In this document: positions 5,777-48,208 of the stretch, piece after piece
How the letters are laid out: each line of letters begins with the position of its first letter
How positions within the stretch are numbered: position 1 is the first letter of the stretch
Assembly: GCA_963768055.1 (NCBI GenBank)
Contig: CAVYGN010000001.1
Span: forward strand, 576,001 to 640,000
DNA: 64,000 nucleotides
Origin: an uncultured Spirochaetota bacterium
Lineage (GTDB): Bacteria > Spirochaetota > Brevinematia > Brevinematales > JAOACQ01
Direction: 5' to 3'
Notes under the pieces: model-generated
Seen by the model: only the letters and a program-made list of their open reading frames with translations
What the model was told of the DNA's origin: nothing
Database searches by the model: none
Position numbers and translations under genes: made by a program

Positions 5777-5822
5777 CTCCATTGAAATTTTGATAAAAGT
5801 GCCAAGAGGGGATAAAATAAGG
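5777..5822 (+). repeat. Intergenic repeat type A carrying a sigma70-like promoter
   Basis: CTCCATTGAAATTTTGATAAAAGTGCCAAGAGGGGATAAAATAAGG; TTGATA(5790)-17 bp-TAAAAT(5813). Confidence 0.85.
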
Positions 5823-5858
5823 AGATTTTAAGGGGATTATTATAATGATGGGCATAAG

Positions 5859-7360: not shown

Positions 7361-7399
7361 GCTCTTCCCACCTCTGCTCTGCCTGCTGTGAGAGTGTGG
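7361..7399 (+). repeat. Intergenic repeat type B
   Basis: GCTCTTCCCACCTCTGCTCTGCCTGCTGTGAGAGTGTGG; matches copies at 27333, 28566 and 29475. Confidence 0.75.
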
Positions 7400-18933: not shown

Positions 18934-18963
18934 ATTTCACTTATCATTCACTAATCGCTCACG
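18869..18963 (+). repeat. ~95-bp direct repeat (kinase 3' end plus regulator boxes), copy 1
   Basis: Near-identical to 23793-23887 (offset 4924). Confidence 0.9.
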
Positions 18964-18995
18964 TCAAAGACACAAGGAAAAGTCATAATACAAGC

Positions 18996-19452: not shown

Positions 19453-19491
19453 AATACAAAAGAAAACATTTTATTAAACAGAGGAATTTTT

Positions 19492-21822: not shown

Positions 21823-21860
21823 ATATTTCAAATATGTTTATAAAATGTTAGGAGGAAAAA

Positions 21861-22487
21861 ATGTTCGTCGGAAAATCAATCTGGGATATCCTTCAGATGG
21901 GCGGATTTACAATGACCGTTCTTCTGATCTGCTCGATAATATCTCTTTCATTCATACTTGAAAGGGTATTTCATCTCAGGAGCAAAACAAGGGTTAAAAG
22001 GCCTCCCTTTATGGCTAAAATCAAAAGTTATCTCGAAGGCAACAGCCTCCAGGGCACGTCTGCATACGCGGGAACCTTGATATCGCCTCTGGCCAGGGTT
22101 GTTCAGGCCGGGCTCCTTCTCAACGGAAAAGGCGATGAGAAAATAACAAACGCGATGGACAGGCAGATAAGCATTGAAATTAAAGAGCTTGAAAGATTTA
22201 CCGGCATCCTCGGTTCAATTGGAAGCACTGTAGTATATATCGGCCTGTTCGGTACGGTTATCGGCATTATAAGGGCATTCCAGGACATTGCTCTTTCAGC
22301 AGGCAGCGGGACAGGCATAGCCGGGGTTGTGGCCGGTATTGCAGAAGCCCTCATTACAACAGCCACAGGTATTCTTGTAGCGGTTCCGACAGTCATCGCC
22401 TATAACACTTTGATGAACAATATAGGCAATATCGCTACAGATATGGAGATCTGCGCTTCCGAGACCCTGGATTTATTAAGGAAATAA
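21861..22487 (+). CDS. exbB: MotA/TolQ/ExbB proton channel
   Basis: IGLFGTVIGII.AF; GIAEALITTA.G..VA.P. Confidence 0.9.
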   Translation: MFVGKSIWDILQMGGFTMTVLLICSIISLSFILERVFHLRSKTRVKRPPFMAKIKSYLEGNSLQGTSAYAGTLISPLARVVQAGLLLNGKGDEKITNAMDRQISIEIKELERFTGILGSIGSTVVYIGLFGTVIGIIRAFQDIALSAGSGTGIAGVVAGIAEALITTATGILVAVPTVIAYNTLMNNIGNIATDMEICASETLDLLRK

Positions 22488-22490
22488 ACT

Positions 22491-22913
22491 ATGATAAAAA
22501 AGAGATCGGAAAAAAGGAAATTGATGACCGATATAAATATTACGCCTTTTACCGACGTAGTGCTGGTTCTTTTGATCATATTTATTATCGCCACGCCCCT
22601 GATATACCAGGGGAAGATAAAGATCAACCTGCCGGAGACAAAGAGCACGAAGACCGAGGACAAGCCAATGAGGATGACTGTCCAGGTGACAGAACAGGGA
22701 TCTATATTTATTGACGACGTGGAATACAGCATGCCGGCCGATGCTGAAAAGATTAAAACGAAGATCCTGAATACAGTGGGAAACAGCGAAAATTCCGCAG
22801 TTGTCATAAACGGCGATAAAAACTGCAGGTACAGTACAATCATCGGCATAATAGATGCCATAAAGGAAATAGGTATAAAGAAGATCCTGCTCGGGACTGA
22901 AATTAAAAGATAG
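22491..22913 (+). CDS. exbD: ExbD/TolR protein
   Basis: INITPFTDVVLVLLIIFII. Confidence 0.9.
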   Translation: MIKKRSEKRKLMTDINITPFTDVVLVLLIIFIIATPLIYQGKIKINLPETKSTKTEDKPMRMTVQVTEQGSIFIDDVEYSMPADAEKIKTKILNTVGNSENSAVVINGDKNCRYSTIIGIIDAIKEIGIKKILLGTEIKR

Positions 22914-22926
22914 CCGGGGGAGAATT

Positions 22927-23493
22927 ATGAAAATGCTGCGTTTCGTAGGTATATCCGCCGTTCTTCACTTGCTTGTTCTGTTTGTGTTAATGTTAAAATT
23001 CCAGGCAGGTTTCATAATGACTAACGATACCTATGTCCAGCTTAACGATGAAAAACACTCGATAGATATGAAGACTCCCAAACCTTTTGTCATGGGCGAG
23101 GCGGCTAATAAAAAGATGAAGCCGGTTATCAACACGAACTTTCAGGAGCTTCAAAAAGAGGATAATGAAGATGCCGGCGGCGGCGGCCCATTGGATTTAA
23201 GCGGTTATGTCCCAAGTTATCAGGTCGAAGAACTCCCTATACCGCTATCTCCGATCAGTCCGAAATATCCCGAAGAGGCTCGAAGGACCGGCATCGAAGG
23301 CAAAGTACTTGTAATGCTGTATATCGATGAGCTTGGAAATGTAAAAAAAGTCGAAATCCAGAAATCCCCCAGCGATTTACTGTCGAAATCTGCTTTAGAA
23401 GCTGTATCGTCGACAAGGTTCAGACCGGCAAAAATTGGGGGAGCAGCCAGAGCGGTATGCATGCTTCTGACTCTGAAATTCCATCTGGAATAG
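22927..23493 (+). CDS. tonB: Energy transducer TonB
   Basis: N-terminal S..LH TM segment; PKYPEEARRTGIEGKV TonB_C. Confidence 0.9.
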   Translation: MKMLRFVGISAVLHLLVLFVLMLKFQAGFIMTNDTYVQLNDEKHSIDMKTPKPFVMGEAANKKMKPVINTNFQELQKEDNEDAGGGGPLDLSGYVPSYQVEELPIPLSPISPKYPEEARRTGIEGKVLVMLYIDELGNVKKVEIQKSPSDLLSKSALEAVSSTRFRPAKIGGAARAVCMLLTLKFHLE

Positions 23494-23526
23494 ATCAAAA
23501 ATCAATCCCGATATATCGAAATTGAT

Positions 23527-23795
23527 TCAGGCTTGCAATTCGAAAGACTCTTCGCTGATTTTTTCGAATTCCCCGTTTGTAAAGTCTTCGACAGTAAGGA
23601 TTTTCTTCCGGCCCCCAGGAGCGATCTTTTTAGTATGCCTCTCGAGGCGGGCCGTCCAGTTAATGCTGAACTTTTCAATCATTATAAAAGTATCGTCGTC
23701 GGTAAAATTCCCCTCGCCGGTTATATAGCAGGCAAAATTATCATACCATTCGAGCCTGAATTTTTTTATTTTTTCATCGAAGAAGACAATCCCCC
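23527..23795 (-). pseudogene. 5'-truncated gene fragment (possibly DUF1579-like)
   Basis: Open minus frame GIVFFDEKNKKFRLEWYDNF...ELQA*, cut at the start of the duplicated kinase tail. Confidence 0.4.
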
Positions 23796-23897
23796 CTTTC
23801 GGAGTCCGGAATCTTTCGGACGGAGTGGAGTTTTATTTCAGGCTGAAAATTTCATAGATTTCACTTATCATTCACAAATCGTTCACGATACTATCAC
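23793..23897 (+). repeat. Direct repeat copy 2 with four 11-bp-periodic TTCAC boxes
   Basis: TTCAC at 23860, 23871 and 23882, ATCAC at 23893; matches 18869-18963. Confidence 0.9.
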
Positions 23898-23919
23898 AAA
23901 TATGCGTTATAGTGCCGTT

Positions 23920-25113
23920 ATGAAAAAAATAATATCAATAATTTTTATTATTATCGCGGCCGGTTCTGTCGGCGGGTATATTCTTTTCAATTCAGGCAGG
24001 GCTAAAAATCCATATGAGATTGCGGAAATCGAAAGGGGAGACCTCTCCGAAAATATTTCCTGCACGGGAAACCTTAAACTGAGGAATTCCGTGGTTGTTA
24101 ATTTCAAGATATCCGGTACAGTTGCTGAGGTGATGGCCGATTTCAATCAAAGAATCAGGAAAGGACAGCCGCTGGCTTCCCTGGATAAAACCCTCCTGAA
24201 ACTGGCTGTTCAGACGGCGGAGGCGGGCCTTCATTCAGCACAGAACCAGATTGTCCAGGCTAAAAAAAACTATGAGGATACGAAATTCCTTTTCGATAAA
24301 AATTTCAAATCACAGTCAGACCTTGATACAGCGAAGATAAACCTTGATACGGCACAGATTAATTTGCAGACAAGCCAGATCAGCCTGGATAGCGCGAAAG
24401 CGAACCTTATGTTTGCGGTGATCTATTCGCCCATTGACGGCATCGTCATCGAACGGAATATCGAGGCAGGACAGTCAGTAGCAAGCAGCGAGTTTAACAC
24501 TGTCCTTATGACAAATTTTTTTCTTGCGAGCGACACAAGTAAAATACAGATTTTTGCTACAGTAGACGAAAACGATATTTCAAAAATCAAAAAAGGGCAG
24601 AAGGTCGTTTTTACCGTCCAGAGTTACCAGGATAAAACTTTTAAAGGCATTGTAAGCCAGATCCGCATGAAGCCCATTGTTTCGGATAATGTTGTTGTAT
24701 ATACCATTGTTATGGACGCTGATAATCAGGATAATTTGCTTATTCCCGGTATGACTGCAACATTGAACATTGAGACGGATAGCCGCAAGAACATCCTTAT
24801 GGTTCCTAATACAGCTCTTAAGTTCCAGCCGCCTATAGAAATATTTAGATTGCCACAAATAACCGGCGGGCAGGGAATGGCAGATCGTGATTTAGTCTGG
24901 ACTTATAATGAAAAAACAGGAAAAATCAGGTCTGTTTTTGTAAAAACCGGTCTGACCGACGGTCAGATGACAGAGATCTACTCTGAAGAATTAAAAGATG
25001 GCATGAAAGTCCTGACGGGGCTTTCAGTAGTTGTTAATAATACTAAAATCGGGTCTAAGAGCATATTGAATTCAGTCAGCGGTCCGGGCGGCGGACCTCC
25101 TCCAGGAATGTAG
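23920..25113 (+). CDS. MacA-like efflux periplasmic adaptor
   Basis: N-terminal TM; ISGTVAEV.ADFNQRIRKGQ; IYSPIDGIV; start at MKKII rather than the track start. Confidence 0.9.
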   Translation: MKKIISIIFIIIAAGSVGGYILFNSGRAKNPYEIAEIERGDLSENISCTGNLKLRNSVVVNFKISGTVAEVMADFNQRIRKGQPLASLDKTLLKLAVQTAEAGLHSAQNQIVQAKKNYEDTKFLFDKNFKSQSDLDTAKINLDTAQINLQTSQISLDSAKANLMFAVIYSPIDGIVIERNIEAGQSVASSEFNTVLMTNFFLASDTSKIQIFATVDENDISKIKKGQKVVFTVQSYQDKTFKGIVSQIRMKPIVSDNVVVYTIVMDADNQDNLLIPGMTATLNIETDSRKNILMVPNTALKFQPPIEIFRLPQITGGQGMADRDLVWTYNEKTGKIRSVFVKTGLTDGQMTEIYSEELKDGMKVLTGLSVVVNNTKIGSKSILNSVSGPGGGPPPGM

Positions 25114-25154
25114 GTAAAGGGAAATCTTGTTGACAATGAGATTGAAAGGAAAAT

Positions 25155-26375
25155 ATGGAATTATTAAATTTTTTTAGCACAGCAGTCCGGTCGATTTTAA
25201 GGAATAAGATGCGCAGCTTTCTCACAATGTTAGGCATAATTATAGGCATCTCATCTGTGATAGTGATGGTTTCTATAGGTGCCGGTGCACAACAGGAGAT
25301 AAAGGAGCAAATTTCAAGCATGGGTATAAACCTGATAACAGTATTCCCTGAAGCCTTCAGGAAGGGCGGAGTCAATCAGGGGGGAGGATCAGGTTCACAC
25401 CTGAAGTACAGCGATGTAAAAAAATTAAAAAAACAGGCCAGGCTTCTTTCGGGAGTATCACCGCTGATCCGGGCCGATGTCCAAGTGATTGGCGGCAAGG
25501 CTAACTGGAGTACGGTCATTTATGGGGTTTCCCCGGATTATCTGGCTATTCGCAGTATGAGTGTGTCTATGGGAAGTGTGTTGGCCGATAACGATTTGAA
25601 TGTCAATGCAAAGGTTTGTATTCTCGGCCAAACAGTCGCGACAAATTTATTCGGCAATACAAGTCCGGTTGGAAAAACGGTTCGGATAGGGCAGGTCCCG
25701 TTCCGGGTCATTGGAGTTTTTAGGCCAAAGGGATTTTCCGGCAGCGGGCAGGACCAGGATGATCTTGTTGTCGCACCTTATACAACAGTTCAGTACCGTC
25801 TGAGCCGTTTCCCTTTTCTCCAAATGATACTCTGTTCGAGTATATCCGGCGATAAAATGGAAGCTGCGCAGGCTGAAATAAGGTCTATTCTCCGCGAATC
25901 GCTTAAGATCCCCATAAGTTCTGATGACAGCTTCACTATACGTAGCCAAACAGAGGTCATATCAACGGCCACCCGGACTACAGGGGTTCTTGCAGTTTTT
26001 CTTGCCTCCATCGCGGGAATCTCACTACTTGTAGGCGGAATAGGCATCATGAATATTATGCTGGTTTCGGTAACAGAACGTACAAAGGAAATTGGGATAA
26101 GGCTTGCAGTTGGGGCCAGAAAAAAAGATATTCTCCTGCAGTTTCTTGTGGAAGCGGTGGTACTATGCCTGACAGGCGGTATTATAGGCATAGGGCTGGG
26201 TATAATAATTTCATTGATGGTCCGGGTATATATAGGATGGAATGTTGTCCTCCAGGCACATATAGTGATTCTGTCTTTCGCATTTTCATTCTTCGTGGGT
26301 ATCTTTTTCGGATTTTATCCAGCCAGGCGGGCATCAGCCTTAAATCCTATAGATGCATTGAGATATGAACCTTAA
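25155..26375 (+). CDS. MacB/FtsX-like ABC permease (no fused ATPase)
   Basis: RSFLTMLGIIIG; GIGIMNIMLVSVTERTKEIG; PIDALRYE. Confidence 0.95.
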   Translation: MELLNFFSTAVRSILRNKMRSFLTMLGIIIGISSVIVMVSIGAGAQQEIKEQISSMGINLITVFPEAFRKGGVNQGGGSGSHLKYSDVKKLKKQARLLSGVSPLIRADVQVIGGKANWSTVIYGVSPDYLAIRSMSVSMGSVLADNDLNVNAKVCILGQTVATNLFGNTSPVGKTVRIGQVPFRVIGVFRPKGFSGSGQDQDDLVVAPYTTVQYRLSRFPFLQMILCSSISGDKMEAAQAEIRSILRESLKIPISSDDSFTIRSQTEVISTATRTTGVLAVFLASIAGISLLVGGIGIMNIMLVSVTERTKEIGIRLAVGARKKDILLQFLVEAVVLCLTGGIIGIGLGIIISLMVRVYIGWNVVLQAHIVILSFAFSFFVGIFFGFYPARRASALNPIDALRYEP

Positions 26376-26506
26376 ATTATTATTACTCCAAGATTTTAGT
26401 AAGCTTAACTATATGCAAGCTACCCTTAACATTTTTAGTGTAATACCTGGCAATGAGTGGATTATGCCTTGCTGAAATTTAAGCCTTTTATAATAAGGAG
26501 ACATCT

Positions 26507-26752
26507 ATGAGGATTTTAATTGTGGAAGATGAAAGGGACACACAGGAAGATTTTTCAATTTCCCTGAAGCCAACAGGTTATGAGATTGTTGAAACCGATA
26601 ACCCGAAAATAGCCCTGGCTTTATATATTAAATAAGGCTTTGAGCTGGTTATTTTAGACATTAGTGTGCAAGATATGAGGGGAATCAAATTACTGTCTGA
26701 ACTGCATGAATTAAAGCGGGAAAAACCGGATAAGCTATTCGATAATGCTTAA
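26507..26752 (+). pseudogene. Receiver-domain pseudogene
   Basis: MRILIVEDE...ALYIK*GFELVILDI; in-frame TAA at 26633; AAGGAG RBS. Confidence 0.75.
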
Positions 26753-26773
26753 TAATAATGAAGGAGTTGACAA

Positions 26774-27058
26774 ATGAGTTCGAGGAAAACGATCGGAGTA
26801 AGTATTAGTAAAAGTTACTTTATCGCCTATATTGAATCGGATGGCATTCATAAAATAATGACATACCCCGATAATAAAAATGGTATTAATAGTTTTTTGG
26901 ATGAACTGGATGACAATACGGTTATCGGGATAGAAAGACGCGGCCGGTTCGGCGCTTTTATTAAATCGATCAAGCATCTGATAAAAGAATATATATTGCT
27001 TTGTCATGAAGATTTTATTAGTTTTATCAGCCTTACAGACAAAGAAATTAACGAATAG
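26774..27058 (+). pseudogene. Degenerate IS110-like DEDD N-terminal fragment
   Basis: TIGVSISK...YPDNKNGINSFL...VIGIE resembles the IS110 GxDxSK...E motif with the catalytic Asp replaced. Confidence 0.4.
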
Positions 27059-27069
27059 GAGAAGGAGAA

Positions 27070-27363
27070 ATGAGGAATTATGTTTTAATTTTAATCGCGA
27101 TGTTTACAATTAATCCGCTTTTTACTAAGCCGGTTTATTCAGAAGACAAAGACATTAAACTTGAAGATCATCAATCAAGCCTTAATGTGGATTTGATAAC
27201 TGTTCTTCAAAACCGTAAATCGACACGGGGGTTTACCGATAAGGAAATATCATTGAAAGATCTGTCCACAATCCTTTGGGCAGCAAATGGGATCAATCGT
27301 TATGATGGAAAAAGAACTGCTCCTTCACTAGGGCTCTTCCTCCCTCTGCTTTGCCTGCTATGA
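27070..27363 (+). pseudogene. Nitroreductase (SagB/ThcOx-like), 3'-truncated at a type B repeat
   Basis: LQNRKSTRGF..LSTILWAANG..KRTAPS, then reads into the repeat and stops. Confidence 0.8.
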
Positions 27364-27370
27364 GGGATGG
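27333..27370 (+). repeat. Intergenic repeat type B
   Basis: GCTCTTCCTCCCTCTGCTTTGCCTGCTATGAGGGATGG. Confidence 0.85.
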
Positions 27371-27398
27371 GGGCGAGGATTTAGAAAAAAGAGGTTAT

Positions 27399-28550
27399 AT
27401 GAAAAGAATAATGATTTTGTTTATTTCAGGGGTTTTGAGTTTAATAACTTTCGAGCAATTGATGTCCGAAGATTTCATTTTAATTAAAGCGAATTCATTT
27501 AAAGGAAGCGCATACGACATAGGATTTAAAGAGGGTAAAGAAGTTATAAAAAATGAACCATTCTTTAAACAAGTTTTAAAAGCCAGCGTATTTACAAAAG
27601 CAACAGAAAGCAATTTTAATGAGGTTTCCAGACTGCTGAAAGAATTCGATGAAGATATTTTAGCTGAAATGAAAGGATTTTCTGATGCTTCTGATATTCC
27701 TTTTGAGGATATTGTGGTTAAATTAAGCGGATGGGGTATTACTAAGCCTGCAATACCTCATGGGTGCACACAAATAGCTATTTTACCAAATAAGACGTTT
27801 AACCATCATTTATTAGTTGGAAGAAATTATGATTATTCAGCCGATAAAAATTTAACAGATTTTAGCCTGGTTTTACTATACCCAGATACCTTTAAGTCTT
27901 CCATCGGAACTTCTCAATTTATTTTTGGGCGAATTGAGGGAATGAATAAGGATGGCTTATATGCAGGAATGTCATTTGCTCATGGCATAGGCAGAAATGA
28001 GAATGGATTTTTCTTTCCAATTATTATTAGAATGATTCTTGATAAATGCAAAGATACTAAAGAAGCTCTTGTGCTCATTAAAAAGATTCCTCATTCCTGT
28101 GCCTATAATTATCTAATTGCAGATAAAAATAATGCAGTTGCGGTTGAGGTAAGCCCCCCTAAAATTGCAATCAGATATCCTGAAAATAGTCTAATCGTTG
28201 TTGTAAATCATTATATCAAAGATGAAATGAAAACAGAGCAAAAATGGTTGATGCCCAATTCACAGAATAGATATAAACTTGCGATATCAAAACTAAACAA
28301 GGTAATTAATCTGGATGATTTAAAAATATTTTTATCAAGTCCTATTCCTAAAGGAGTATGTCAAAATTATTATAAAGATTATCTTGGCACTCTTTGGTCT
28401 GCTGTATTTGATTTGACTGATAACAAGGTCTATTATTCTTTTGGATCACCATCCTTAAATAATTATAATATAATTGATTTTAAAAATGGTGAAATATTAA
28501 ACAAAACAATTAAAGGAATTTTACCTGAGAATGAGCCACTTACAAATTAA
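27399..28550 (+). CDS. C45 family peptidase/acyltransferase (Ntn hydrolase)
   Basis: GCT autoprocessing site; GRNYDY; EGMNKDGL; NH. Confidence 0.85.
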   Translation: MKRIMILFISGVLSLITFEQLMSEDFILIKANSFKGSAYDIGFKEGKEVIKNEPFFKQVLKASVFTKATESNFNEVSRLLKEFDEDILAEMKGFSDASDIPFEDIVVKLSGWGITKPAIPHGCTQIAILPNKTFNHHLLVGRNYDYSADKNLTDFSLVLLYPDTFKSSIGTSQFIFGRIEGMNKDGLYAGMSFAHGIGRNENGFFFPIIIRMILDKCKDTKEALVLIKKIPHSCAYNYLIADKNNAVAVEVSPPKIAIRYPENSLIVVVNHYIKDEMKTEQKWLMPNSQNRYKLAISKLNKVINLDDLKIFLSSPIPKGVCQNYYKDYLGTLWSAVFDLTDNKVYYSFGSPSLNNYNIIDFKNGEILNKTIKGILPENEPLTN

Positions 28551-28565
28551 TTTTCTTGTGGCATA

Positions 28566-28602
28566 GCTCTTCACCCTCTACTTTGCCTGCTATGAGGGAT
28601 GG
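28566..28602 (+). repeat. Intergenic repeat type B
   Basis: GCTCTTCACCCTCTACTTTGCCTGCTATGAGGGATGG. Confidence 0.85.
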
Positions 28603-28652
28603 AGAAGAAAAGAGATTATTGAAATATAGAGTTATTTTATGGAGGGAATACC

Positions 28653-28985
28653 ATGTCTGAATTTCCAGATATCATTAAAGAACTACCCAATGCCGATATC
28701 CCGATAGACGGCTTATACTCCTATTTATTTCAAGGTGAAAACAAGCAAATTGTCTTTATGAAATTTGAAAAGGATGCTTTTGTTCCAGAGCATAAACATG
28801 AGGCTCAATGGGGCATTGTCTTAGAAGGTGAAACAATATTAGAATTTGAAGACAAAAAATTACTTTTAAAAAAAAGTGATGAATATTATATTCCAAAAGG
28901 TAAATTGCATAGTGCAAGGATAAAAGCAGGATATAAAGATATTACATTATTCAATCAGAATGATAGATATAAAAAGAAAAAGTAA
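28653..28985 (+). CDS. Cupin domain protein
   Basis: PEHKHEAQWGIVLEG; YYIPKGKLH. Confidence 0.85.
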   Translation: MSEFPDIIKELPNADIPIDGLYSYLFQGENKQIVFMKFEKDAFVPEHKHEAQWGIVLEGETILEFEDKKLLLKKSDEYYIPKGKLHSARIKAGYKDITLFNQNDRYKKKK

Positions 28986-29002
28986 GCTTCTTCTTTATCT
29001 GC

Positions 29003-29091
29003 CTTCCTTTTCCAGCCTGCCCTCCCATTGTTCAGCATTGCCAGACAAATGAATTTTTTAATAAAAGCGCCGGGAGGGGATAGAATAAGGG
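29003..29091 (+). repeat. Intergenic repeat type A (long form)
   Basis: CCTTTTCCAGCCTGCC..TTCAGCATTGCCAGACAAATGAATTTTTTAATAAAAGCGCCGGGAGGGGATAGAATAAGG. Confidence 0.85.
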
Positions 29092-29112
29092 AATTACTGT
29101 AAGAAGGATAAA

Positions 29113-29463
29113 ATGAAAGATTTTCCTGATTTTATGAAGAATCCGAAAAATAAGATTAAACAAAGCTCTCAATTTACAAAAGACATTGAAGGCTTTGTTT
29201 TTGATGGCAAAGATGGTTCTCAAATGGCATTCTGGACTTCCTATGAAGATAGAGAATCGAAAGAGCACTGTCATAATTTCGATGAATATATGGTATGTAT
29301 TTATGGGCAATATAAAGTGAAAATGAATGGTGAAATTATAACCTTGAATCCTGGTGATGAATTATTTATCCCAAAAGGAACATTACAGAGCGGGGTATGT
29401 ATTAAAGGAACAAGGACTATTCATGCATTTGGTGCGAAAAGGGCTGAAAGGGAAGGAGAATAA
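29113..29463 (+). CDS. Cupin domain protein
   Basis: EHCHNFDEY; GDELFIPKG. Confidence 0.85.
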   Translation: MKDFPDFMKNPKNKIKQSSQFTKDIEGFVFDGKDGSQMAFWTSYEDRESKEHCHNFDEYMVCIYGQYKVKMNGEIITLNPGDELFIPKGTLQSGVCIKGTRTIHAFGAKRAEREGE

Positions 29464-29474
29464 TTTGTTTTAAA

Positions 29475-29508
29475 GCTCTTCCCCCTCTGCTTTGCCTATG
29501 AGGGATGG
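29475..29508 (+). repeat. Intergenic repeat type B
   Basis: GCTCTTCCCCCTCTGCTTTGCCTATGAGGGATGG. Confidence 0.85.
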
Positions 29509-29524
29509 GGAATAAGATTTCCGG

Positions 29525-29935
29525 ATGAGGTTATTTATAATGAATGCTTTTATTAATTGTGAAAGAATAGATGATTTGTTTGTCGAAAGACTAATAAATA
29601 ATTTAAAATTAGAAGGATTTATGGTATCAACATCGCCAAAAAATCCCATTGATGGTGAGGATATCAGATGGAATAATTGGTATAACTTTGGTATTGATGA
29701 GGCTTTACAAAATATAGATGTTTTCATCTCAATAATTACAGATTCATGGTCATCATCAACTTGGATGGCTATAGAGTGTGATACAGCAGAAAAATATTTT
29801 TTACAAAATAGTATTAAGAATATGTATTATATAGACTTACGAACCTCTAAATATATGCCAAAAGGGATGGAACAATATTTAAAAACGGAATTACCTAAAA
29901 ATTTTAATGAGATATTAAAAATTATCAAGGCATAA
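29525..29935 (+). CDS. Stand-alone TIR domain protein
   Basis: IDEALQNIDVFISIIT...SSTWMAIE (W..E catalytic Glu). Confidence 0.7.
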   Translation: MRLFIMNAFINCERIDDLFVERLINNLKLEGFMVSTSPKNPIDGEDIRWNNWYNFGIDEALQNIDVFISIITDSWSSSTWMAIECDTAEKYFLQNSIKNMYYIDLRTSKYMPKGMEQYLKTELPKNFNEILKIIKA

Positions 29936-29955
29936 TTTCATTTAATATTTCCCCT

Positions 29956-30022
29956 CCCTTTTCCAGCCTGCCATTCTCCATTGAATTTTTGATAAATCTG
30001 TGGTGAGGGGATAGAATAAGGG
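29956..30022 (+). repeat. Intergenic repeat type A
   Basis: CCTTTTCCAGCCTGCCATTCTCCATTGAATTTTTGATA-17 bp-TAGAATAAGG. Confidence 0.85.
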
Positions 30023-30090
30023 GTAGTTAAGGTATAGTGAATTTATTGAGTAAAATCCCTTCAATCAATAAAAAAAATGAAGGTATATGA

Positions 30091-30771
30091 ATGGAAAAAT
30101 ATTTATCTGAAAAATATCTTAAAAATTTAATTCCGTCATGTTGCAAGATTGGATTTGCAAGTATTAATGATTATAATGAAATTGAGATAAGCTCATTAAC
30201 AAGTTTTTTGCCTGGAACTAAAACTATTATTGTCCTTTTCCATCATATTCAAAACTCATTGGAATGGTTATGGTATCCCTTTGAGAATGAAAGGGGTGAA
30301 AAAACATGCGGTGCGGACCAACATAGTCAGATTGTTCTCAATAAACTGAAGAATTATTTACAAAAAGAAGGGTATAATATTTCAGTATTACCTTATCCTG
30401 ATATATGCGGTGTAATGTTCAAGACAATTGCAACAAAAACATGTTTAGGAGAATTGGGAGAGAACTTTTTATTTATGAATAATGAATGGGGGCCTTGGAT
30501 TCATCTTCGGGTACTATTAACAAATGCTGAATTTTCATTTGAGCGCATTGAATTAATAAAGGCTTGCAATCATTGCGGTAATTGCCGTAAAGTATGCCCG
30601 GCTGATGCGATAAAGTCAAACTCATTCGATGGCATAAAATGCAGAGAAAGTATGCATAAAAGATCCGAAGAACTTGGTAAAAAACCATTTGTTTTTGAAT
30701 GTGAAATTTGCTTGCGTTCTTGTCCTATTGGAACTATTCCAGAAGAAGTAATTATTGATTATAAGAGATAA
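30091..30771 (+). CDS. Epoxyqueuosine reductase-like 4Fe-4S dicluster protein
   Basis: GPWIHLRVLLT; CNHCGNCRKVCP; CEICLRSCP. Confidence 0.8.
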   Translation: MEKYLSEKYLKNLIPSCCKIGFASINDYNEIEISSLTSFLPGTKTIIVLFHHIQNSLEWLWYPFENERGEKTCGADQHSQIVLNKLKNYLQKEGYNISVLPYPDICGVMFKTIATKTCLGELGENFLFMNNEWGPWIHLRVLLTNAEFSFERIELIKACNHCGNCRKVCPADAIKSNSFDGIKCRESMHKRSEELGKKPFVFECEICLRSCPIGTIPEEVIIDYKR

Positions 30772-30801
30772 TATTGTTATTTATGATAGTTCGTTTCTTT
30801 C

Positions 30802-30888
30802 GCTCCTTTGCTTTGCCTGCCTTCCCCCTTTTTCAGCATTGCCAGACAAATGAAATTTTGATAAAAGTGCCAAGAGAGGATAGAATAA
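30802..30888 (+). repeat. Composite B+A intergenic repeat
   Basis: GCTCCTTTGCTTTGCCTGCC...TTCAGCATTGCCAGACAAATGAAATTTTGATAAAAGTGCCAAGAGAGGATAGAATAA. Confidence 0.85.
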
Positions 30889-30950
30889 TAATGGGCAAGC
30901 CTTATATTGAGTTTAGTAAAAAGCTAGCAAGAAAATAATAAAGTAGGAGA

Positions 30951-31643
30951 TTGGATATGCAAGGAAAAATAAAAACAAATGGAATATGTGCATATTGCAA
31001 AACCGAGATTCCTAAAAACGCTCATGCTATATTAAGCCACATTTCTAACTGTAAAAGCAAAGCCATATCAAAAAATGAAAGTCATATTAATTACATGATT
31101 TTATTGCTTGAAGGAAAATATAATCCTGATTACTGGATTGTTATAAAAGCCAAGCCTGAAATAACAATGAAAAAAGTTGATAAGTTTTTAAGAGACATTT
31201 GGGTTGAATGTTGTGATCATATGAGTTTGTTTTCCGATAAACATTCTAAAATTGGCATGACATGGAAATTAGATGAGGTATTTGAGAAAGGGTATAAAGT
31301 TGATTATATATATGATTTTGGTTCATCGACAGAAATTTCATTATCATTATTAGAAGAATCAGGGGATAAAGATGAAAAAGATATTCAGATACTTATGCGA
31401 AATAAAGAAATTGATTATAAATGTTCATATTGTAATAATAAGGCTGTAGAAATTTGTCCTTTTTGTTTATATGAAGATAAAGGTTTCTTATGTAAATCCT
31501 GTATTAAAGAGCATAAATGTATAAAAAATGAAGGAGAAGATATCCTTTTACCTATTGTAAATTCTCCAAGATCTGGAGAATGTGGATATACAGGTTATTT
31601 GGATAAAGATGTTAAAAAGTATTTTCCAAGGGAAATAATTTAG
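30951..31643 (+). CDS. Cys-rich hypothetical protein (pRiA4b ORF-3-like core)
   Basis: FLRDIWVECCDHMSLF; YIYDFGSST; NSPRSGECGY. Confidence 0.6.
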   Translation: MDMQGKIKTNGICAYCKTEIPKNAHAILSHISNCKSKAISKNESHINYMILLLEGKYNPDYWIVIKAKPEITMKKVDKFLRDIWVECCDHMSLFSDKHSKIGMTWKLDEVFEKGYKVDYIYDFGSSTEISLSLLEESGDKDEKDIQILMRNKEIDYKCSYCNNKAVEICPFCLYEDKGFLCKSCIKEHKCIKNEGEDILLPIVNSPRSGECGYTGYLDKDVKKYFPREII

Positions 31644-31770
31644 AAGAACATTGAAATCTTCAATTAGTAATAGGTTTATTCTTCCATTTCCAGCTTTTAT
31701 GCTAACCATTTTGGAAAATTTGCCAGACAAATATGGACGGGATTAGAATAATTGGGATCTGAGTTTTTAA

Positions 31771-31869
31771 ATGGATTTAAAATTATAAATATATGATTTT
31801 GACGGAACTATAAATAAATGAGATTCCGCGATTGATTTATGGTTTTTTATACTATGGAAAGAGCCTTAA
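31771..31869 (+). pseudogene. HAD-hydrolase remnant following a degenerate type A repeat (31720-31751)
   Basis: MDLKL*IYDFDGTINK*DSAIDLWFF; DFDGT HAD motif I with in-frame stops. Confidence 0.55.
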
Positions 31870-31945
31870 TTAGGACAGACGAACAAGAACTATCAAACTG
31901 TATAAAAAATAGAATTTAATTTTTAAGTTGATATTGTGGTGGATT

Positions 31946-32911
31946 ATGCTGGAAACCATGAATGAATTGGGAAAAAAAAGGGTGCCATTTCTATTCATTA
32001 TCGATTTTGAGATGAATAACCCAATCATTTTACCAATGTCGGCGATTGATTCTGAAACAGTTATGTTTGATATAAATGGTATAACGAATTGCAATTTCAG
32101 TAAACAATCAGGACAGCCTGTCTATTTTCAAAAACAACCAGTTTCTTATAATACATACCGAAAATCTTTTTTAAAAGTTCGGGAGCATTTTTTTCAAGGT
32201 AATACTTATTTGCTGAATCTGACATTTCCGACAGAAATAAAATCGAATCTTTCTCTAAAAGAAATATATTCAAATAGCTTCGCTAAATATCGATTATATT
32301 ATAAAGATAAATTCATTGTTTTTTCTCCTGAAACATTCATTAAAATAAATAACGGTAAAATATTCAGTTATCCTATGAAAGGAACCATTGATGCATCAAT
32401 ACCCGATGCATATAATAAAATTCTGAAAGATGATAAAGAAATGGCAGAACATATTACAATTGTTGATTTAATAAGAAATGATTTGAATATGGTATCAAGA
32501 AATGTTAATGTACTGAGGTTTAGATATGTAGAGAAAATATCAACAAATAGCAAGGACTTATATCAAGTCAGTTCGGAAATAATGGGTGAATTGGATAACA
32601 ATTATAACGAAATAATAGGTAATATTATATTTTTTCTACTTCCTGCAGGGTCTATCAGTGGCGCTCCGAAGATAAAAACGATTGAAATTATAAAAGAAGT
32701 AGAAAATTATAAGAGGGGTTATTATACCGGAGTATTTGGCTATTTTGATGGACATCAGTTGGATAGTGGAGTAATGATCCGTTTTATTGAAAAAGAACAA
32801 AACAAGCTGATATATAAAAGCGGTGGAGGATTAACAATTTACAGCGATCTTAATAGTGAATATCAGGAAATGGTGGATAAGGTGTATGTGCCGATTAATA
32901 GAGACAATTAA
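31946..32911 (+). CDS. pabB: Aminodeoxychorismate synthase component I (short form)
   Basis: FSPETF; PMKGT; EHITIVDLIRNDL; PAGSISGAPK; RGYYTG. Confidence 0.9.
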   Translation: MLETMNELGKKRVPFLFIIDFEMNNPIILPMSAIDSETVMFDINGITNCNFSKQSGQPVYFQKQPVSYNTYRKSFLKVREHFFQGNTYLLNLTFPTEIKSNLSLKEIYSNSFAKYRLYYKDKFIVFSPETFIKINNGKIFSYPMKGTIDASIPDAYNKILKDDKEMAEHITIVDLIRNDLNMVSRNVNVLRFRYVEKISTNSKDLYQVSSEIMGELDNNYNEIIGNIIFFLLPAGSISGAPKIKTIEIIKEVENYKRGYYTGVFGYFDGHQLDSGVMIRFIEKEQNKLIYKSGGGLTIYSDLNSEYQEMVDKVYVPINRDN

Positions 32912-33482
32912 AATATGCCAGTGTTGTTATTTGAATCTTAAACTTCATGAAAAAAGACTGAATATATCCAGGAAGGATATTTTTAAAAGCACAGATTGTA
33001 TAAATATCAGTCAATCCATTGAATTCCCAGAAAATTTAACAGAGGATATTTATAAATGCCGAATCATTTACGGAAAAAACATCGAACATTATGAATTTAT
33101 TCCATATGTAAAGAGAGAAATTAATAGTCTTAAGATTGTTTATGATGATGATATAGAATATAACCACAAATTTGAAGAAAGAAACCAATTCAACAATTTG
33201 TTCAATCTGCGGGAACATTGCAGTGATATTTTGATAGTAAAAAGAAATTTGATTACTGATACTTCTTTTTCAAACATTGTATTTTTCAACGGCAATAAAT
33301 GGATTACTCCAGCTCATCCTTTGTTAAAAGGCACAAAAAGGGAGCAATTATTAAACGAAGGAAAAATAAAAAAAGAAGAAATTATGATAGCGGATTTGAA
33401 AAGGTTTAAAAAAGCTTCGATTATTAATGCTATGCTTGAATTGGGTGAGATAGAAATCTTAATTGAAAATATAATTGAATAA
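32886..33482 (+). CDS. pabC: Class IV aminotransferase / ADC lyase
   Basis: ETIK; H..RL; TDTSFSNI; LLKGTKR; overlaps pabB. Confidence 0.8.
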   Translation: MCRLIETIKICQCCYLNLKLHEKRLNISRKDIFKSTDCINISQSIEFPENLTEDIYKCRIIYGKNIEHYEFIPYVKREINSLKIVYDDDIEYNHKFEERNQFNNLFNLREHCSDILIVKRNLITDTSFSNIVFFNGNKWITPAHPLLKGTKREQLLNEGKIKKEEIMIADLKRFKKASIINAMLELGEIEILIENIIE

Positions 33483-33613
33483 GGATAAGCATGAAAGAAC
33501 TGGTTTATAAAAAAAAACAAAAATGGCAAATATTTGATGGATCACATTTTCATTAAAATATATTGGTTTCGGGCTCATTACAGCTTTACTTACCCTACTA
33601 TATTCAGATTCTT

Positions 33614-33660
33614 ATTCTCCATTGATTTTTGATAAAAGTGCCAGGAGGGGATAGAATAAG
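33614..33660 (+). repeat. Intergenic repeat type A
   Basis: ATTCTCCATTGATTTTTGATAAAAGTGCCAGGAGGGGATAGAATAAG. Confidence 0.85.
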
Positions 33661-33690
33661 TGAATCGTATATAAAATCAAAGGAGCCTTT

Positions 33691-34020
33691 ATGAAAATTG
33701 AAAATATTCCATTTATAATATCTGATTGGAATAAAGAAAATAGTCAGAGAATAAATGGAGAAAGCGGTTTTGCTGATATGAAAACATTTGAGCAAGGCAA
33801 TATCAGGGTTAGATTAGTTGAATATTCTCCTGATTACAAAGCAGACCATTGGTGTAAAAAAGGGCATATTGTTTTTATTCTTGAAGGTGAAGTAGCTATT
33901 AAAATAGACGATGGTAGAAAGTTTAAATTATCTAAGGGAATGAGTTTTCAAGTGGCAGACAATGTAGATGCTCATAAAGCTTTTTCAACGAATGGAGCGA
34001 AAGCATTTATTGTTGATTAA
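33691..34020 (+). CDS. DHCW-motif cupin fold protein
   Basis: RLVEYSPDYKADHWCKKGH. Confidence 0.85.
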   Translation: MKIENIPFIISDWNKENSQRINGESGFADMKTFEQGNIRVRLVEYSPDYKADHWCKKGHIVFILEGEVAIKIDDGRKFKLSKGMSFQVADNVDAHKAFSTNGAKAFIVD

Positions 34021-34021
34021 A

Positions 34022-34081
34022 AGCTCCCCCCTTTGCTTTGCCTTCCTTTGATAAAAGTGTGGGAAGGGGATAGAATAAGGG
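34022..34081 (+). repeat. Composite B+A intergenic repeat (short)
   Basis: AGCTCCCCCCTTTGCTTTGCCTTCCTTTGATAAAAGTGTGGGAAGGGGATAGAATAAGG. Confidence 0.85.
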
Positions 34082-34112
34082 AATGTAAGCAAATAAATTT
34101 TAAGGGGAAGAT

Positions 34113-34478
34113 ATGAAAATAAAAACACGAGAACAAATTCCATCTGAAGCAATTGTTGAGCGTTATGGTGTCAATAAAGAGCTTGTGATTGGGGAATATG
34201 ATGATTCAAACCAGATTGTATTAAGAATAATAAGCCTTGATGTAAACAAATTTATTCCTGTCCATATACATAATTTTCCCCATATCTGGAAAATTGAAAA
34301 AGGCATTGGCTTATTAACTGATAATGATGGTATTGAACATAGAGTAGAGCCAGGGCAATTTCTTTTTATTAAAAATAATGAAAAACATGGTATTAGAAAC
34401 ATTGGGGATGATAAACTTGAATATTTATGCTTCGGGACAATTGAAAGCGAAAAAATAGCTCCTCAAAAAGCTGATTAA
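34113..34478 (+). CDS. Cupin domain protein
   Basis: PVHIH.FPH; NEKHGIRNIG. Confidence 0.8.
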   Translation: MKIKTREQIPSEAIVERYGVNKELVIGEYDDSNQIVLRIISLDVNKFIPVHIHNFPHIWKIEKGIGLLTDNDGIEHRVEPGQFLFIKNNEKHGIRNIGDDKLEYLCFGTIESEKIAPQKAD

Positions 34479-34808
34479 AAGATTTTTAGAGTATTAATGG
34501 TTCGATTATACTGGAGGCATGATGAGTAATGAAATACAATCTCTTGGATCTAATCCTACTGGTTTAAAAGGAAAATTTGCTGGTATTTTAATGAATATTA
34601 TTCATGGCAGGCAATATAAAAAAATCATTAAAAAACACATACTGAAAAGAGTTAATTCAATAGAGAAGATTAAAATATTAGATGTTGGTTGCGGGGGAGG
34701 GAAAGCGATATATATTCTTTCTACATTATTTATGAATTCAAAAGTATATGGCATTGACCATCCCCGTGTGTTAGGATAGTTGTCGCCTAAAATATTAGGG
34801 GATAAAAA

Positions 34809-35288
34809 ATGAATAGTCAAATTCATTCAGAGGAATTCAGAAAAGCTATTGTTCAAAAGATGTGTGTGCCTGGCGGTAAAACGGTCATAGAACTGAGCCG
34901 GGAAATAGGAGTGTGTGAACAGACCCTTTACAATTGGAGGAAAATGATTCAGAATAATTTATCCAGACATCAGGAACGAAGCCCGCGAGGATGGAAAATT
35001 TCTGATAAATATCAGGCAATATTGGACACGGCAGGCCAATCGGGAGAAGAATTAGGGCAATGGCTGCGGAAGAACGGCCTCCAGACAACACATATTGACA
35101 TCTGGAAAAAGGAGTGTTTATCAGTGCTATCAAATGACTCATACAAAGAGGAAAACAGACAATTGAAATTAAGGAACATGGAATTAGAAAAGGAAATTGA
35201 TCGTAAGGATAAGGCCCTTGCCGAGGTTACTGCCCTGCTGGTTCTTAAAAAAAAACTGAACAAGCTATTCGGCAAAGAGGAAGATTAA
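34809..35288 (+). CDS. IS3 transposase OrfA (HTH)
   Basis: ELSREIGVCEQTLYNW; ALLVLKKK. Confidence 0.9.
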   Translation: MNSQIHSEEFRKAIVQKMCVPGGKTVIELSREIGVCEQTLYNWRKMIQNNLSRHQERSPRGWKISDKYQAILDTAGQSGEELGQWLRKNGLQTTHIDIWKKECLSVLSNDSYKEENRQLKLRNMELEKEIDRKDKALAEVTALLVLKKKLNKLFGKEED

Positions 35289-35293
35289 CTCCT

Positions 35294-36322
35294 GTGGATA
35301 TAAGAATAAATATTTGTGACTTGATTAATGAGGCTGTTTCATCAGGGTCTAGCAGGGATAAGGCTTGTGAAGAATCAGGCTATGACATAAGGACCATACA
35401 GCGATGGGATAAAAAACTGGGAGAAGACGGGAGAAAAAACCGGACAGCAATGCCTACGAATGCCCTGTCGGCAGAAGAACGGGAAGAGATCATCTCCTGC
35501 TGCTGTAGTGAGAGATTTAGAGATATGACGCCGAATGAAATAGTGCCACTATTGGCAGAGGAAGGGCGATATATAGCATCAGAATCATCTTTTTACCGTG
35601 AACTTAAAGCAAGAGATATGCTTCACCATAGATCCGAGACCAAGCCCAGGACGGCAAGAAAAACGCCAAGAGAATTAGAAGCGACAGGCCCTAATCAGGT
35701 ATGGAGCTGGGATATTACTTATATATCCAGTCATATCAAGGGTAAATACTTCTATCTATATCTGTTTGAGGATGTCTGGAGCCGTAAGATAGTCGGCTGG
35801 AAAATGCAAGAGGAGGAAAGTTCTGATCATGCCGCAAGGATGATGGCAGAGATCGGAGAAACTATTGATTTGAAAGGATTGTATTTACATTCTGATAATG
35901 GCTCTCCTATGAAAGGCGCTACGATGTTATCGACCTTGCAGAGGCTTCAGGTTATGCCGTCTTTTTCAAGACCGAGCGTAAGTAACGATAACCCTTACTC
36001 AGAATCATTGTTTAAAACTTTGAAATATAATGTGAAATACCCCGGCTATTTTGAGACTATGGAAGCGGCAGAAATATGGATGCAAAATTTTGTAGACTGG
36101 TATAACAATAAGCATCTTCATTCAGGGATTGGATATGTTACACCTGCACAAAGACATGACGGTAAAGATAAAGCGATACTCCTGAAGAGAGCGGAAACTT
36201 ATGAAGCGGCTAAAAGCAGGCATCCTGAAAGATGGTCGGGAGAATCAAGAAAATGGGAACGAATAGAATCGGTATTTTTAAACCCGAGTAAGACTAACAA
36301 GGAATCGTTGATTGCAGCGTAA
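35294..36322 (+). CDS. IS3 transposase OrfB (rve DDE)
   Basis: WSWDITY; HSDNG; SESLFKTLK. Confidence 0.95.
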   Translation: MDIRINICDLINEAVSSGSSRDKACEESGYDIRTIQRWDKKLGEDGRKNRTAMPTNALSAEEREEIISCCCSERFRDMTPNEIVPLLAEEGRYIASESSFYRELKARDMLHHRSETKPRTARKTPRELEATGPNQVWSWDITYISSHIKGKYFYLYLFEDVWSRKIVGWKMQEEESSDHAARMMAEIGETIDLKGLYLHSDNGSPMKGATMLSTLQRLQVMPSFSRPSVSNDNPYSESLFKTLKYNVKYPGYFETMEAAEIWMQNFVDWYNNKHLHSGIGYVTPAQRHDGKDKAILLKRAETYEAAKSRHPERWSGESRKWERIESVFLNPSKTNKESLIAA

Positions 36323-36784
36323 AATAAAAGCGACAACTCCCTTGACAAAATCCGCCATTCATCAGATATGGTGAATCTTTCGAACAAAGTCAATAGAAAA
36401 ATAATTCAAGAAGGTTCTGTAGAAATATCTCAAAGTGATATAACCTCTCTTCCATTCACCAATGGATATTTTGATACTATAACGGCTTTTGATACTATAA
36501 ATTTCTGGAATGATTTTAATAAAGCTATTTCTGAAATAATAAGAGTATTGAAAAAAGGCGGGGCTTTCATTATAGTAAACGCTTATCCAAAAGAAGGGAC
36601 AAAATGGTGGGATTTTGTAAAATTTAAAAATGATAGTGAATATCGGGAAGCAATGGCAAAACATAATTTTACGGATATCAATATTACTGTCGAAAAAAAC
36701 ACTATAATAATACAAGCGACAAAGTAATATACACAACAGGGAAGTCAAAAGATTATTATTATCCCTGCATGTTAGGAGTTGATC

Positions 36785-37137: not shown

Positions 37138-37771
37138 ATGGATAATAAAAAGTTGTGGAATTTTGCATTATTACTTTCTGTAATTACAGTATTCTATAAC
37201 CTTCTTGAAGGAATTAGTATCAGTATATTTCGGTGTCGCCGATGAAACATTATCGCTGTTCGGTTTCGGTCTGGATTCCTTTATTGAAGTAATGTCTGGC
37301 ATTGGTGTGTGGCATATGATTATCCGCATAAAAATGAATAATAATGAAAGCAGTGATAATTTTGAAAAAACAGCGCTAAAAATAACAGGCATATCATTTT
37401 ATATTTTGACAGTCGGATTATTACTCACCATTGCCTATAACATTTATACAGGACATAAGCCTCAAACAACTTTTTGGGGAATAGTTATTTCACTGATTTC
37501 AATGGTTGCTATGATCTTTCTAATGTTATTTAAATTGAATGTTGGAAGAAAATTAAAATCAGATGCTGTTATCGCGGATGCTAAATGTTCCAGGACTTGC
37601 CTATACTTGTCAGTGATACTCCTGGTAACAAGCGTTTTATTCCAGATTTTTAAGATCGGTTATATTGATACTATAGGTGCGGTAGGGATAGCTTATTATG
37701 CTTTTAGAGAGGGGAAAGAATCGATGAATAAAGCGAAGGGTAAAAAGTGTGATTGCTGTAAAGATGATTAA
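37138..37771 (+). pseudogene. Cation-efflux-like membrane transporter with a +1 frameshift near 37213
   Basis: MDNKKLW..YNLLEG in one frame; LVSVYFG..LFGFGLDSFIE in the next; C-terminal CDCC. Confidence 0.7.
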
Positions 37772-37971
37772 TACCTTCCTTTCCCCATCTTTCATTTCGC
37801 CCACACTTCTTTCGATAATTAATTCACAACAATAATAGGAGTTTCCAAAATGGATGAAGGTAAAATTTTAGAATCAGATATGATCGATTTAAAAACGGCT
37901 GCAAAAAGTATTGGCAGGTAAAGTATTGGGATAATATATTTATTCAAACAATTATATTTGAGGTAAATAAA

Positions 37972-38577
37972 ATGCAAAATCAAATTCGAAAAGGTAAAAA
38001 TGAAATATTCCATAAATATCTTTATGAAGAAAAATTAAAACATAAAGATCATCGTTTTAATCTTATCTCTATGAAAATGATATTTGTAGCCTCTTTATTT
38101 GGAATTAGTTCAATCCCAATTTGTGGAACGATAGGACAACTATTTTTTATCTTATTGCTTGTACCTGTGTTATGTTTTTCTACAGATATATATATTCTTG
38201 CAGAAGATTATAAGGTAAAAAGAATTGGAAAATTTATTAGAGAAAATTATATATATTTTTCTAAAGTAGAATTTATATGGGAGTACTCATTAAGTTGTAA
38301 AAATAACAGAATGAGGGAAAAATTTAGTAAAATAAATTCATTTATAGTGTCATGTCTCTTGGGTCTTTTTGGACTACTATTTTATATAAAGTTTTCAAAG
38401 TTATTAGATAGTTTAATAATTTCTGATATAAGAAATGAAGAACATATCGGTTTTTATATATATGTAATAGAGTTTATTATATTTGCTGTAATAATTATTA
38501 TTATTAAAAATTTAAATGAAAAAAAAATTGAAGATTGTAATAGCTCTGAAAAGAATGATTTAAAGACTGAACAATGA
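37972..38577 (+). CDS. Hypothetical 4-TM membrane protein
   Basis: GAGG RBS; four hydrophobic segments. Confidence 0.6.
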   Translation: MQNQIRKGKNEIFHKYLYEEKLKHKDHRFNLISMKMIFVASLFGISSIPICGTIGQLFFILLLVPVLCFSTDIYILAEDYKVKRIGKFIRENYIYFSKVEFIWEYSLSCKNNRMREKFSKINSFIVSCLLGLFGLLFYIKFSKLLDSLIISDIRNEEHIGFYIYVIEFIIFAVIIIIIKNLNEKKIEDCNSSEKNDLKTEQ

Positions 38578-38667
38578 CCGTCTTAATTCCTTTTCTAACC
38601 TCATCTTTCATTTCCCCCTCAATTTTTACGATAATTAATTCACATAAATTATTTGAGGAGATGTGAT

Positions 38668-42391: not shown

Positions 42392-42755
42392 TAGTACATT
42401 TTGATCCATCTTCTCCCTAGCCCCTTTTATTTTATTTACCAATCAAGATTATATATCTGCATTTTACACACATCCATAAATTCATTGCGATAAGCTATTG
42501 AAAGATTTTTGAAGCGGGGGTATAATATGGAGAAAGGTTTTAAATTTTAGGATTTGATAATGAATAAGATTAAAATAACAGAAAAAGTTAAATAAAAATA
42601 ATAAAATAGTTGAAAATAATATTTTTAATAGTTTTAAACGATTTATTCTTTACTGAAAAAGAATTACATTCCTATTTTCATCATTTGTTTGTCGTTTATG
42701 ATTAATTCTTTATTATAGATTTAGAATCGCTTAGTAGATAGCTTTAAGAAGAGAA

Positions 42756-44681: not shown

Positions 44682-44700
44682 AGTCTGGCATTGCCAGACT
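44682..44700. promoter_or_regulatory. Perfect 19-bp palindrome related to the repeat-A core
   Basis: AGTCTGGCA-T-TGCCAGACT. Confidence 0.6.
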
Positions 44701-48198: not shown

Positions 48199-48208
48199 AT
48201 TATAATTT

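Follow-up and report, generated by a model that had tools for sequence, protein, structure and literature searches.

Correia elements, BOX elements and promoter-bearing MITEs (miniature inverted-repeat transposable elements) are short, modular and lineage-specific intergenic repeats that carry a promoter. Other repeats punctuate arrays of exchangeable genes. Integron arrays and clusters of attC sites lacking integrases (CALINs) consist of short, low-GC, head-to-tail genes with a repeat just after the stop codon; their gene order changes and their cassettes are exchanged between species (PMC8876359, PMC8618304). The integron core site is GTTRRRY (PMC8876359). Promoter-early stem-loop (PeSL) cassettes of T4-type phages comprise dozens of intergenic sigma70-type promoters in hypervariable regions, where small accessory genes are swapped at repeats and gene gain, loss and replacement are bounded by the repeat; these reports identify no dedicated recombinase (PMC2839356, PMC4122927). 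The recombinase-associated acquired interbacterial defence (rAID) arrays of Bacteroidales combine co-directional low-GC genes and repetitive intergenic sequences with immunity-gene cargo and an XerD-like recombinase, not IntI, at the 5' end (bioRxiv 10.1101/471110). Here we describe a spacer repeat of about 100 bp that separates short genes in a 64,000-nucleotide stretch of DNA, hereafter the window, from an uncultured Spirochaetota bacterium of the order Brevinematales (GCA_963768055.1, contig CAVYGN010000001.1, positions 576,001 to 640,000).

Compared with Correia elements, BOX elements and MITEs, the spacer differs in being concentrated in islands and in having two halves that move with the neighbouring genes, and neither terminal inverted repeats nor target duplications were found for it. 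It shares with integrons and CALINs the array features given above and a similar cargo; however, it has no IntI, no GTTRRRY core, no hairpin and no evident single crossover point, and the repeat itself carries the promoter. The resemblance to rAID arrays ends at the XerD-like recombinase and the immunity genes, neither of which is seen here. PeSL cassettes come closest, with which the spacer has in common both the repeated promoter between accessory genes and the gain, loss and replacement of genes within limits set by the repeat. However, the spacer lies on a bacterial chromosome, has no stable stem-loop, carries a promoter predicted from its sequence, and possesses a long unstructured CT-rich left part and many promoter-less deleted forms. 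Since the stem-loop and the phage context are missing, we do not class it as a PeSL. The repeat is real; specific to this lineage, it links cassettes in islands of the chromosome.

Distribution and anatomy of the spacer

The genome (G000) is 3.69 Mb in two contigs, C1 and C2, and is 94.75% complete; the window corresponds to C1:576001-640000. Position-weight matrices trained on the genome's own spacer copies matched the left part of the spacer 37 times and two promoter variants 30 and 25 times, against 0, 0 and 0 matches in a locally shuffled genome used as control. Three weak left-part matches inside open reading frames (ORFs) were dropped, and the remaining matches merged into 70 elements, a number that is a floor because degenerate copies such as the one at window position 31720 escape the matrices. 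Fifty-five elements lie in a low-GC region of 260 kb (C1 505-765 kb), and the rest comprise seven at C2 1855-1859 kb, three at C2 1154-1155 kb and five singles. Outside the islands the scatter is limited to promoter-only copies, not the genome-wide dispersal expected of MITEs or repetitive extragenic palindromic (REP) sequences. The count of elements on the G-rich strand (68/70) is one to which the arrays themselves contribute by shaping the skew, and the clusters are not independent.

The motif recurs in two of the four other genomes of the same genus and is absent from G002 and G004, while an exact 17-mer of the spacer was found in 1 of 401 genomes of the phylum, namely G000 alone. No match to the spacer was detected in viral contigs, phage records or plasmids. 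In line with the original prediction, an Rfam scan placed no family on the spacers: tRNA was the sole family at gathering score, and none of three sub-threshold chance matches fell on a spacer. A search for literature on Brevinematales together with integrons or genomic islands returned no paper, and nothing on this repeat appeared in titles and abstract openings, a coverage that leaves out most subscription journals.

When 23 copies chosen from four genomes were aligned, a single order emerged: left part, middle part, linker and the promoter TTGATA-17 bp-TAGAAT. The left part is CT-rich (354 C, 354 T, 113 G, 60 A) and ends in TTTGCC, the middle part looks like a repeat of the left part, and the aligned copies differ by internal deletions. 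The spacer is one colinear unit of about 100 bp, made of the CT-rich left part, the linker and the sigma70-type promoter, plus internally deleted forms. This replaces the freely interchangeable modules originally proposed; module B of that proposal appears to combine a left part with what remains of the promoter spacer, which would account for its missing -35 box. Matrix matches cover the left part in 34 of the 70 elements, the promoter in 44 and both in 8. The further proposal that each cassette brings its own promoter is not supported, with no promoter match in 26 of the 70 elements and in three of the nine originally predicted window copies.

Pairwise likeness among the 44 promoter copies is 93% and 96% in the two hexamers and 50% in the 15 bases between them, the fixed spacing being built into the ungapped matrix. 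Such conservation of the hexamers next to variable intervening bases points to selection on a sigma70-type promoter. A generic promoter scan is by itself not significant (75 versus 62.6 +/- 7.5). At the other end, 28 of 33 left parts start no more than 26 nt past the stop codon of the upstream gene. Rho is encoded in the genome, and, speculatively, the CT-rich part may serve as a Rho-loading tract; the spacers gave no terminator-like match.

An attC-like hairpin was suspected from the loosely complementary spacer ends, and folding on both strands and as RNA rejects it. The fold z-scores range from -0.72 to +1.91 over 16 strands of eight window copies, and z <= -2 was reached by only 3, 3 and 2 of the 70 elements across both strands and the RNA folds (RNA fold, 3/70). 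The complementarity is a loose pyrimidine/purine one, no better than in shuffles. Neither GTTRRRY nor RYYYAAC, the other attC end, occurs on either strand of the nine window spacers, as originally noted. Two other origins were tried and rejected. For a tRNA-derived att core, the tRNA 3' ends do not match and the orientations disagree, and the tRNA-Ser end has no second copy beyond a sister element described below. For an origin from IS1380 ends, those of this genome carry a different promoter.

Cassettes and their breakpoints

The genes flanked by spacers show cassette-like behaviour: identical genes are found next to different partners, both within G000 and in three relatives. The cassette of cupin 4 and a methyltransferase is present in three copies in G000 (87-95% identity), behind a DHCW-motif cupin in the window, a DUF6790 remnant at C2:1854763 and a GNAT gene at C1:714785, the last copy having an IS3 element in its promoter. 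The sequence common to these copies begins in the promoter and, in the two copies with a downstream spacer, ends right after TTTGCC. The window order cupin 1-cupin 2-TIR-QueG compares with cupin 1-DUF6790-QueG in G003, and in G000, G003 and G006, the last a genome of another genus, DUF6790 is followed downstream by three different neighbours. An array in G001 opens with a hydrolase 90% identical to a mid-array hydrolase at C1:709554. Core genes flank a further small array of G001; in G003 there is an older array of higher GC, and in G000 its genes lie dispersed across two contigs.

Some cassettes are highly similar across these boundaries. QueG is 93% identical between G000 and G003, versus 64-75% for core genes; DUF6790 is 94.7% identical between G006 and G003, where three other common stretches reach 68-72% and an ApbA-like fragment 78-80%. 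IS3 copies are 85-89% alike between G000 and G003, so that mobile DNA in general crosses these boundaries. Several cassette genes also have homologues of higher GC in plain operons without spacers. Together, these results support the part of the original prediction that concerned shuffling, namely the same genes beside different neighbours; a dedicated site-specific capture system is not shown by them. That prediction had also listed dispersal near core genes, a fixed gene order and a match to a known insertion sequence (IS) end or attC as observations that would speak against it; instead, 55 of 70 elements lie in one region, the order varies, and neither the IS1380 ends of this genome nor attC core sites match.

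Three observations on related loci are recorded here. The region C2:1841350-1860200 and a G001 array both lie downstream of the same tRNA-Ala(CGC), and the DNA between differs. G001 holds three more diverged promoter copies (976-1032, 3906-3962 and 9161-9217 of locus L051) that exact patterns missed. Locus L050 of G004 has two other intergenic direct repeats of 72-76 nt (7876/13141 and 9825/13390) near a cupin 2 homologue.

We then located breakpoints in 25 homologous pairs (at least 200 bp, at least 80%), with 6 IS rows dropped. Of the 38 ends left, five mark points of IS3 insertion. Among the 33 that remain, 18 fall inside a spacer, whereas spacers make up 30% of intergenic bases and 7.7% of all bases (binomial p 0.003, for pairs that are not independent). 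The sequence from the stop codon to the left part is common to copies of the upstream gene, and the stretch running from the -10 box up to the start codon is common to copies of the downstream gene. The left part of the spacer moves with the upstream gene, and its promoter end moves together with the 5' leader and the downstream gene.

In several pairs identity stops where the left part ends, and in one pair it stops inside the -35 block; in other pairs it begins at the -35 block, the -10 block or the left part. The ends thus fall in at least three conserved blocks yet concentrate where the left part finishes, among copies 80-98% alike in which later changes blur the junctions. Breakpoints in several blocks are what crossing over within any common block would give. 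In one GNAT pair (96%) only the reading frame is common, which together with the mid-gene ends points to gene conversion and ordinary deletion as further processes. At the head of the array, the first spacer meets a duplicated nitroreductase gene in its middle, at a short imperfect match, a single example of illegitimate recruitment.

Mechanism of exchange and competing explanations

The reading we prefer, with a probability of about 0.55, is short-homology recombination at a repeated promoter spacer, PeSL-like but chromosomal and without a stem-loop. Homology-directed exchange would take place in whichever block of 20-45 bp two copies have in common, be it the left part, the -35 block or the -10 block. 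RecA would handle the most alike copies, and phage annealases would probably help for the rest. Slippage between internal sub-repeats would yield the deleted spacer forms, with which some genes would depend on read-through transcription. Rare illegitimate joins would recruit new genes as well as new sites.

Several observations weigh against this reading. Perfect matches of at least 31 bp occur in 8 of 2415 element pairs and of at least 23 bp in 36 of 2415, while RecA needs a minimal pairing segment of 31-34 bp and Red-beta one of 23-27 bp (PMC3945230); with such short matches RecA alone would be slow, and an annealase stays in play. RecT was found in two of the five genomes of the genus and not in the array-bearing G001; a Bet/RecT annealase is a putative helper. 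As for natural transformation, the search for comEC in G000 found none; dprA is present. As for the breakpoints, 15 of 33 lie outside spacers, several of them mid-gene, and the likeness between any two spacers can draw alignment ends into a spacer. Moreover, homology cannot explain the first recruitment of a gene. Finally, the TTTGCC end of the left part is where many 3' breakpoints gather, and the left part itself starts within 26 nt of the upstream stop (28/33), both of which would also be expected from a site-specific capture step.

One possible source of such a step is a dedicated, unlinked recombinase other than IntI that cuts where the left part terminates in TTTGCC, or close by, with indels and gene conversion blurring the junctions and internal TGCC-type direct repeats serving as its binding sites. 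The 3' homology does end about 6 nt or less from TTTGCC for cupin 4 plus methyltransferase, QueG, a metallo-beta-lactamase-fold (MBL) gene, DUF6790, a cyclase and a lipoprotein; the left part adjoins the stop codon, the perfect homology between copies is short, and the cargo (GNATs, glyoxalase, DinB, small multidrug resistance (SMR) proteins, methyltransferases, cupins) is integron-like. However, a single crossover would leave duplicates alike throughout the downstream side, and those of QueG, cupin 4 and the lipoprotein are not. The spacer also offers no symmetric or folded site.

Thirteen places were compared among 14 tyrosine-recombinase matches in G000, with a median distance of 61 kb to an element; a tyrosine recombinase is found within 10 kb for only 6 of the 70 elements, and these all belong to the C2 array. 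This array, 6 kb behind a 233-aa tyrosine recombinase (C2:1848269-1848970), speaks for a dedicated enzyme, but no recombinase heads the other arrays and the 233-aa protein has no partner of at least 45% in the G001-G003 loci examined. Besides XerC/D, only one recombinase family has partners of at least 45% in both G001 and G003, and a partner exists in the motif-free G002 as well. Three resolvases were found in G000. No recombinase travels with the arrays. The tyrosine integrase of the window (61131-62663), suggested originally as an actor, sits at tRNA-Ser in a phage-like element and has no spacer element within 15 kb, which speaks against that role. This element (window 55800-62856), with integrase, Bet-like RecT (59185-59961) and Gp157 genes at tRNA-Ser(CGA), has an 85-93% sister at tRNA-Ser(GGA), C2:1129641-1136010. 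We regard a dedicated recombinase as the main rival, though an unlikely one. The fuller version is held with the same reserve: an integron-independent capture system of Brevinematales, in which an unlinked enzyme would add the CT-rich end behind the stop codon, recombine at an unstructured promoter-bearing site and feed a cassette pool common to different species and genera.

Still less probable is a small mobile or copied promoter element of the MITE or REP kind, retained for expressing foreign genes, with shuffling as a side effect. Promoter-only copies do stand singly before ordinary genes at about eight places of G000 outside the islands, G003 has 10 exact-pattern sites, and one copy joins mid-gene in the truncated nitroreductase. 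But there is no stable inverted-repeat fold and no fixed 3' end, target duplication was not seen by eye at the junctions inspected, and the two halves of the spacer travel with different genes. The spacer bears no likeness to the IS1380 ends of this genome, and Y1 transposases, reverse transcriptases and IS110 are absent from G000 in searches whose positive controls matched; a search for IS91 found none in five genomes and was without a positive-control match. Decayed integron arrays of the CALIN type with eroded attC sites are very improbable: short, co-oriented, low-GC genes with integron-like functions would fit them, and integrons occur in Spirochaetota (PMC8618304), but core sites are absent in 9/9 spacers, there is no fold on either strand, the copies are too alike to be eroded, G000 has no IntI (best TIGR02249 score 87.8 bits against a cut-off of 265), and IntI was found at E<=1e-40 in 0 of 35 genomes of the order by a search without a positive-control match.

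The window arrays and what the spacer means

All nine intergenic elements of the original prediction are present between short co-oriented genes, on the forward strand like the genes they separate. Gene labels were taken from Pfam and NCBIfam; those originally given hold for the C45 peptidase, the four cupins, the QueG-like protein and the pabBC pair, and the TIR label is weak (PF13676, E 1.4e-4, below cut-off). The array begins at a truncated nitroreductase (27070..27363), which duplicates the intact gene at C1:546770-547471 (98%) and breaks off at about 27329, where the first spacer starts. A stretch of 614 bp (window 26716-27329), between a broken response-regulator remnant and the array, is a 98% copy of C1:546416-547029. 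The first spacer (27333..27370) is a B-type copy, its left part fused to a promoter-spacer remnant, and, like the B-type copies at 28566..28602 and 29475..29510, is without a -35 box. Between the first two lies the C45 family peptidase/acyltransferase (27399..28550; NF040521, PF03417), of which G003 has a 77% copy of higher GC without flanking spacers.

Cupin 1 (28653..28985), with an 83% copy in G003 whose neighbours differ on both sides, is followed by a spacer with a duplicated middle part and the promoter TTAATA-17-TAGAAT at 29058-29086 (28986..29089), and then by cupin 2 (29113..29463), a homologue of which occurs in 1 of 150 other genomes of the phylum. After the third B-type spacer come the weakly TIR-like gene (29525..29935) and a spacer without a left part (29949..30020), whose promoter, TTGATA-17-TAGAAT at 29989-30017, is a hybrid of the two variants. 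The QueG-like Fe-S protein (30091..30771; TIGR00276 below cut-off), for which the 93% copy in G003 has different neighbours, precedes a full-length spacer (30795..30889) with left part, middle, linker and promoter (30858-30886).

A hypothetical protein without Pfam or NCBIfam match (30951..31643) is separated by the degenerate copy (31680..31752), consisting of a middle remnant and the -10 half only, from the pabB-pabC-like pair (31928..33482). The pair forms one unit between spacers, its PabB above the cut-off of NF005486 and its PabC-like protein matching PF01063. Next are a linker-plus-promoter copy (33605..33660, promoter 33629-33657), the DHCW-motif cupin (33691..34020) and a spacer in which the left part is joined directly to the promoter (34022..34079, promoter 34048-34076). 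This cupin has an 80% copy at C1:726499-726890, and homologues stand in plain operons in G004 and G006. A full promoter is therefore present in five of the nine copies. The last cassette, cupin 4 plus methyltransferase, extends from 34113 to 36727, its methyltransferase split by an IS3-family element (34762..36354) with a 4-bp duplication. The methyltransferase is free of IS3 in public contigs of three of four runs, these three belonging to one study that may include the source sample.

Two further window copies belong to a second mini-array with the same spacer (5777-8170), which encodes a methyltransferase, a PPase-like protein, a GNAT and a CAAX protease: a linker-plus-promoter copy at its head, found by matrix scan (5777..5823), and a B-type copy without a -35 box (7362..7398), both on the forward strand. 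Across the genome, the next ORF after an element is on the same strand in 65 of 70 cases, and these genes have a median GC of 0.302 and length of 167 aa, versus 0.425 and 297 aa for ORFs of at least 100 aa. Among 140 proteins scanned in and around the islands, the cargo is rich in GNATs, methyltransferases, cupins, DinB, glyoxalase, DJ-1, MBL-fold hydrolases and DUFs, and also includes SMR.

The same islands hold a second, unrelated CT-rich intergenic repeat in six copies (window 37768-37850 and 38576-38665, C1:678138, C1:716659, C2:1152054, C2:1860224), three of them ahead of one family of basic proteins of about 120 aa. Elsewhere in the window, a two-component system and HlyD/MacB block within 16563-26715 is duplicated at C1:650688-655861 (90-98.5%), an ExbBD-TonB block in the same interval is 92.6% like C2:1443663-1445386, and 40916-52870 contains defence-like genes (P-loop ATPase, TIR, Eco57I-type methylase, Schlafen AlbA_2).

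The discussion of the 2010 PeSL paper ends on the statement that evidence of this kind of repeat-guided shuffling was still lacking for cellular organisms (PMC2839356). The spacer, a linker common to islands of low-GC accessory genes in a single Brevinematales genus, would provide a chromosomal case with about 70 sites, and between species its cassettes show far higher likeness (up to 94.7% across genera) than most other common genes do. Integron-like arrays and cargo can thus exist without IntI or attC, and integron finders would miss them.

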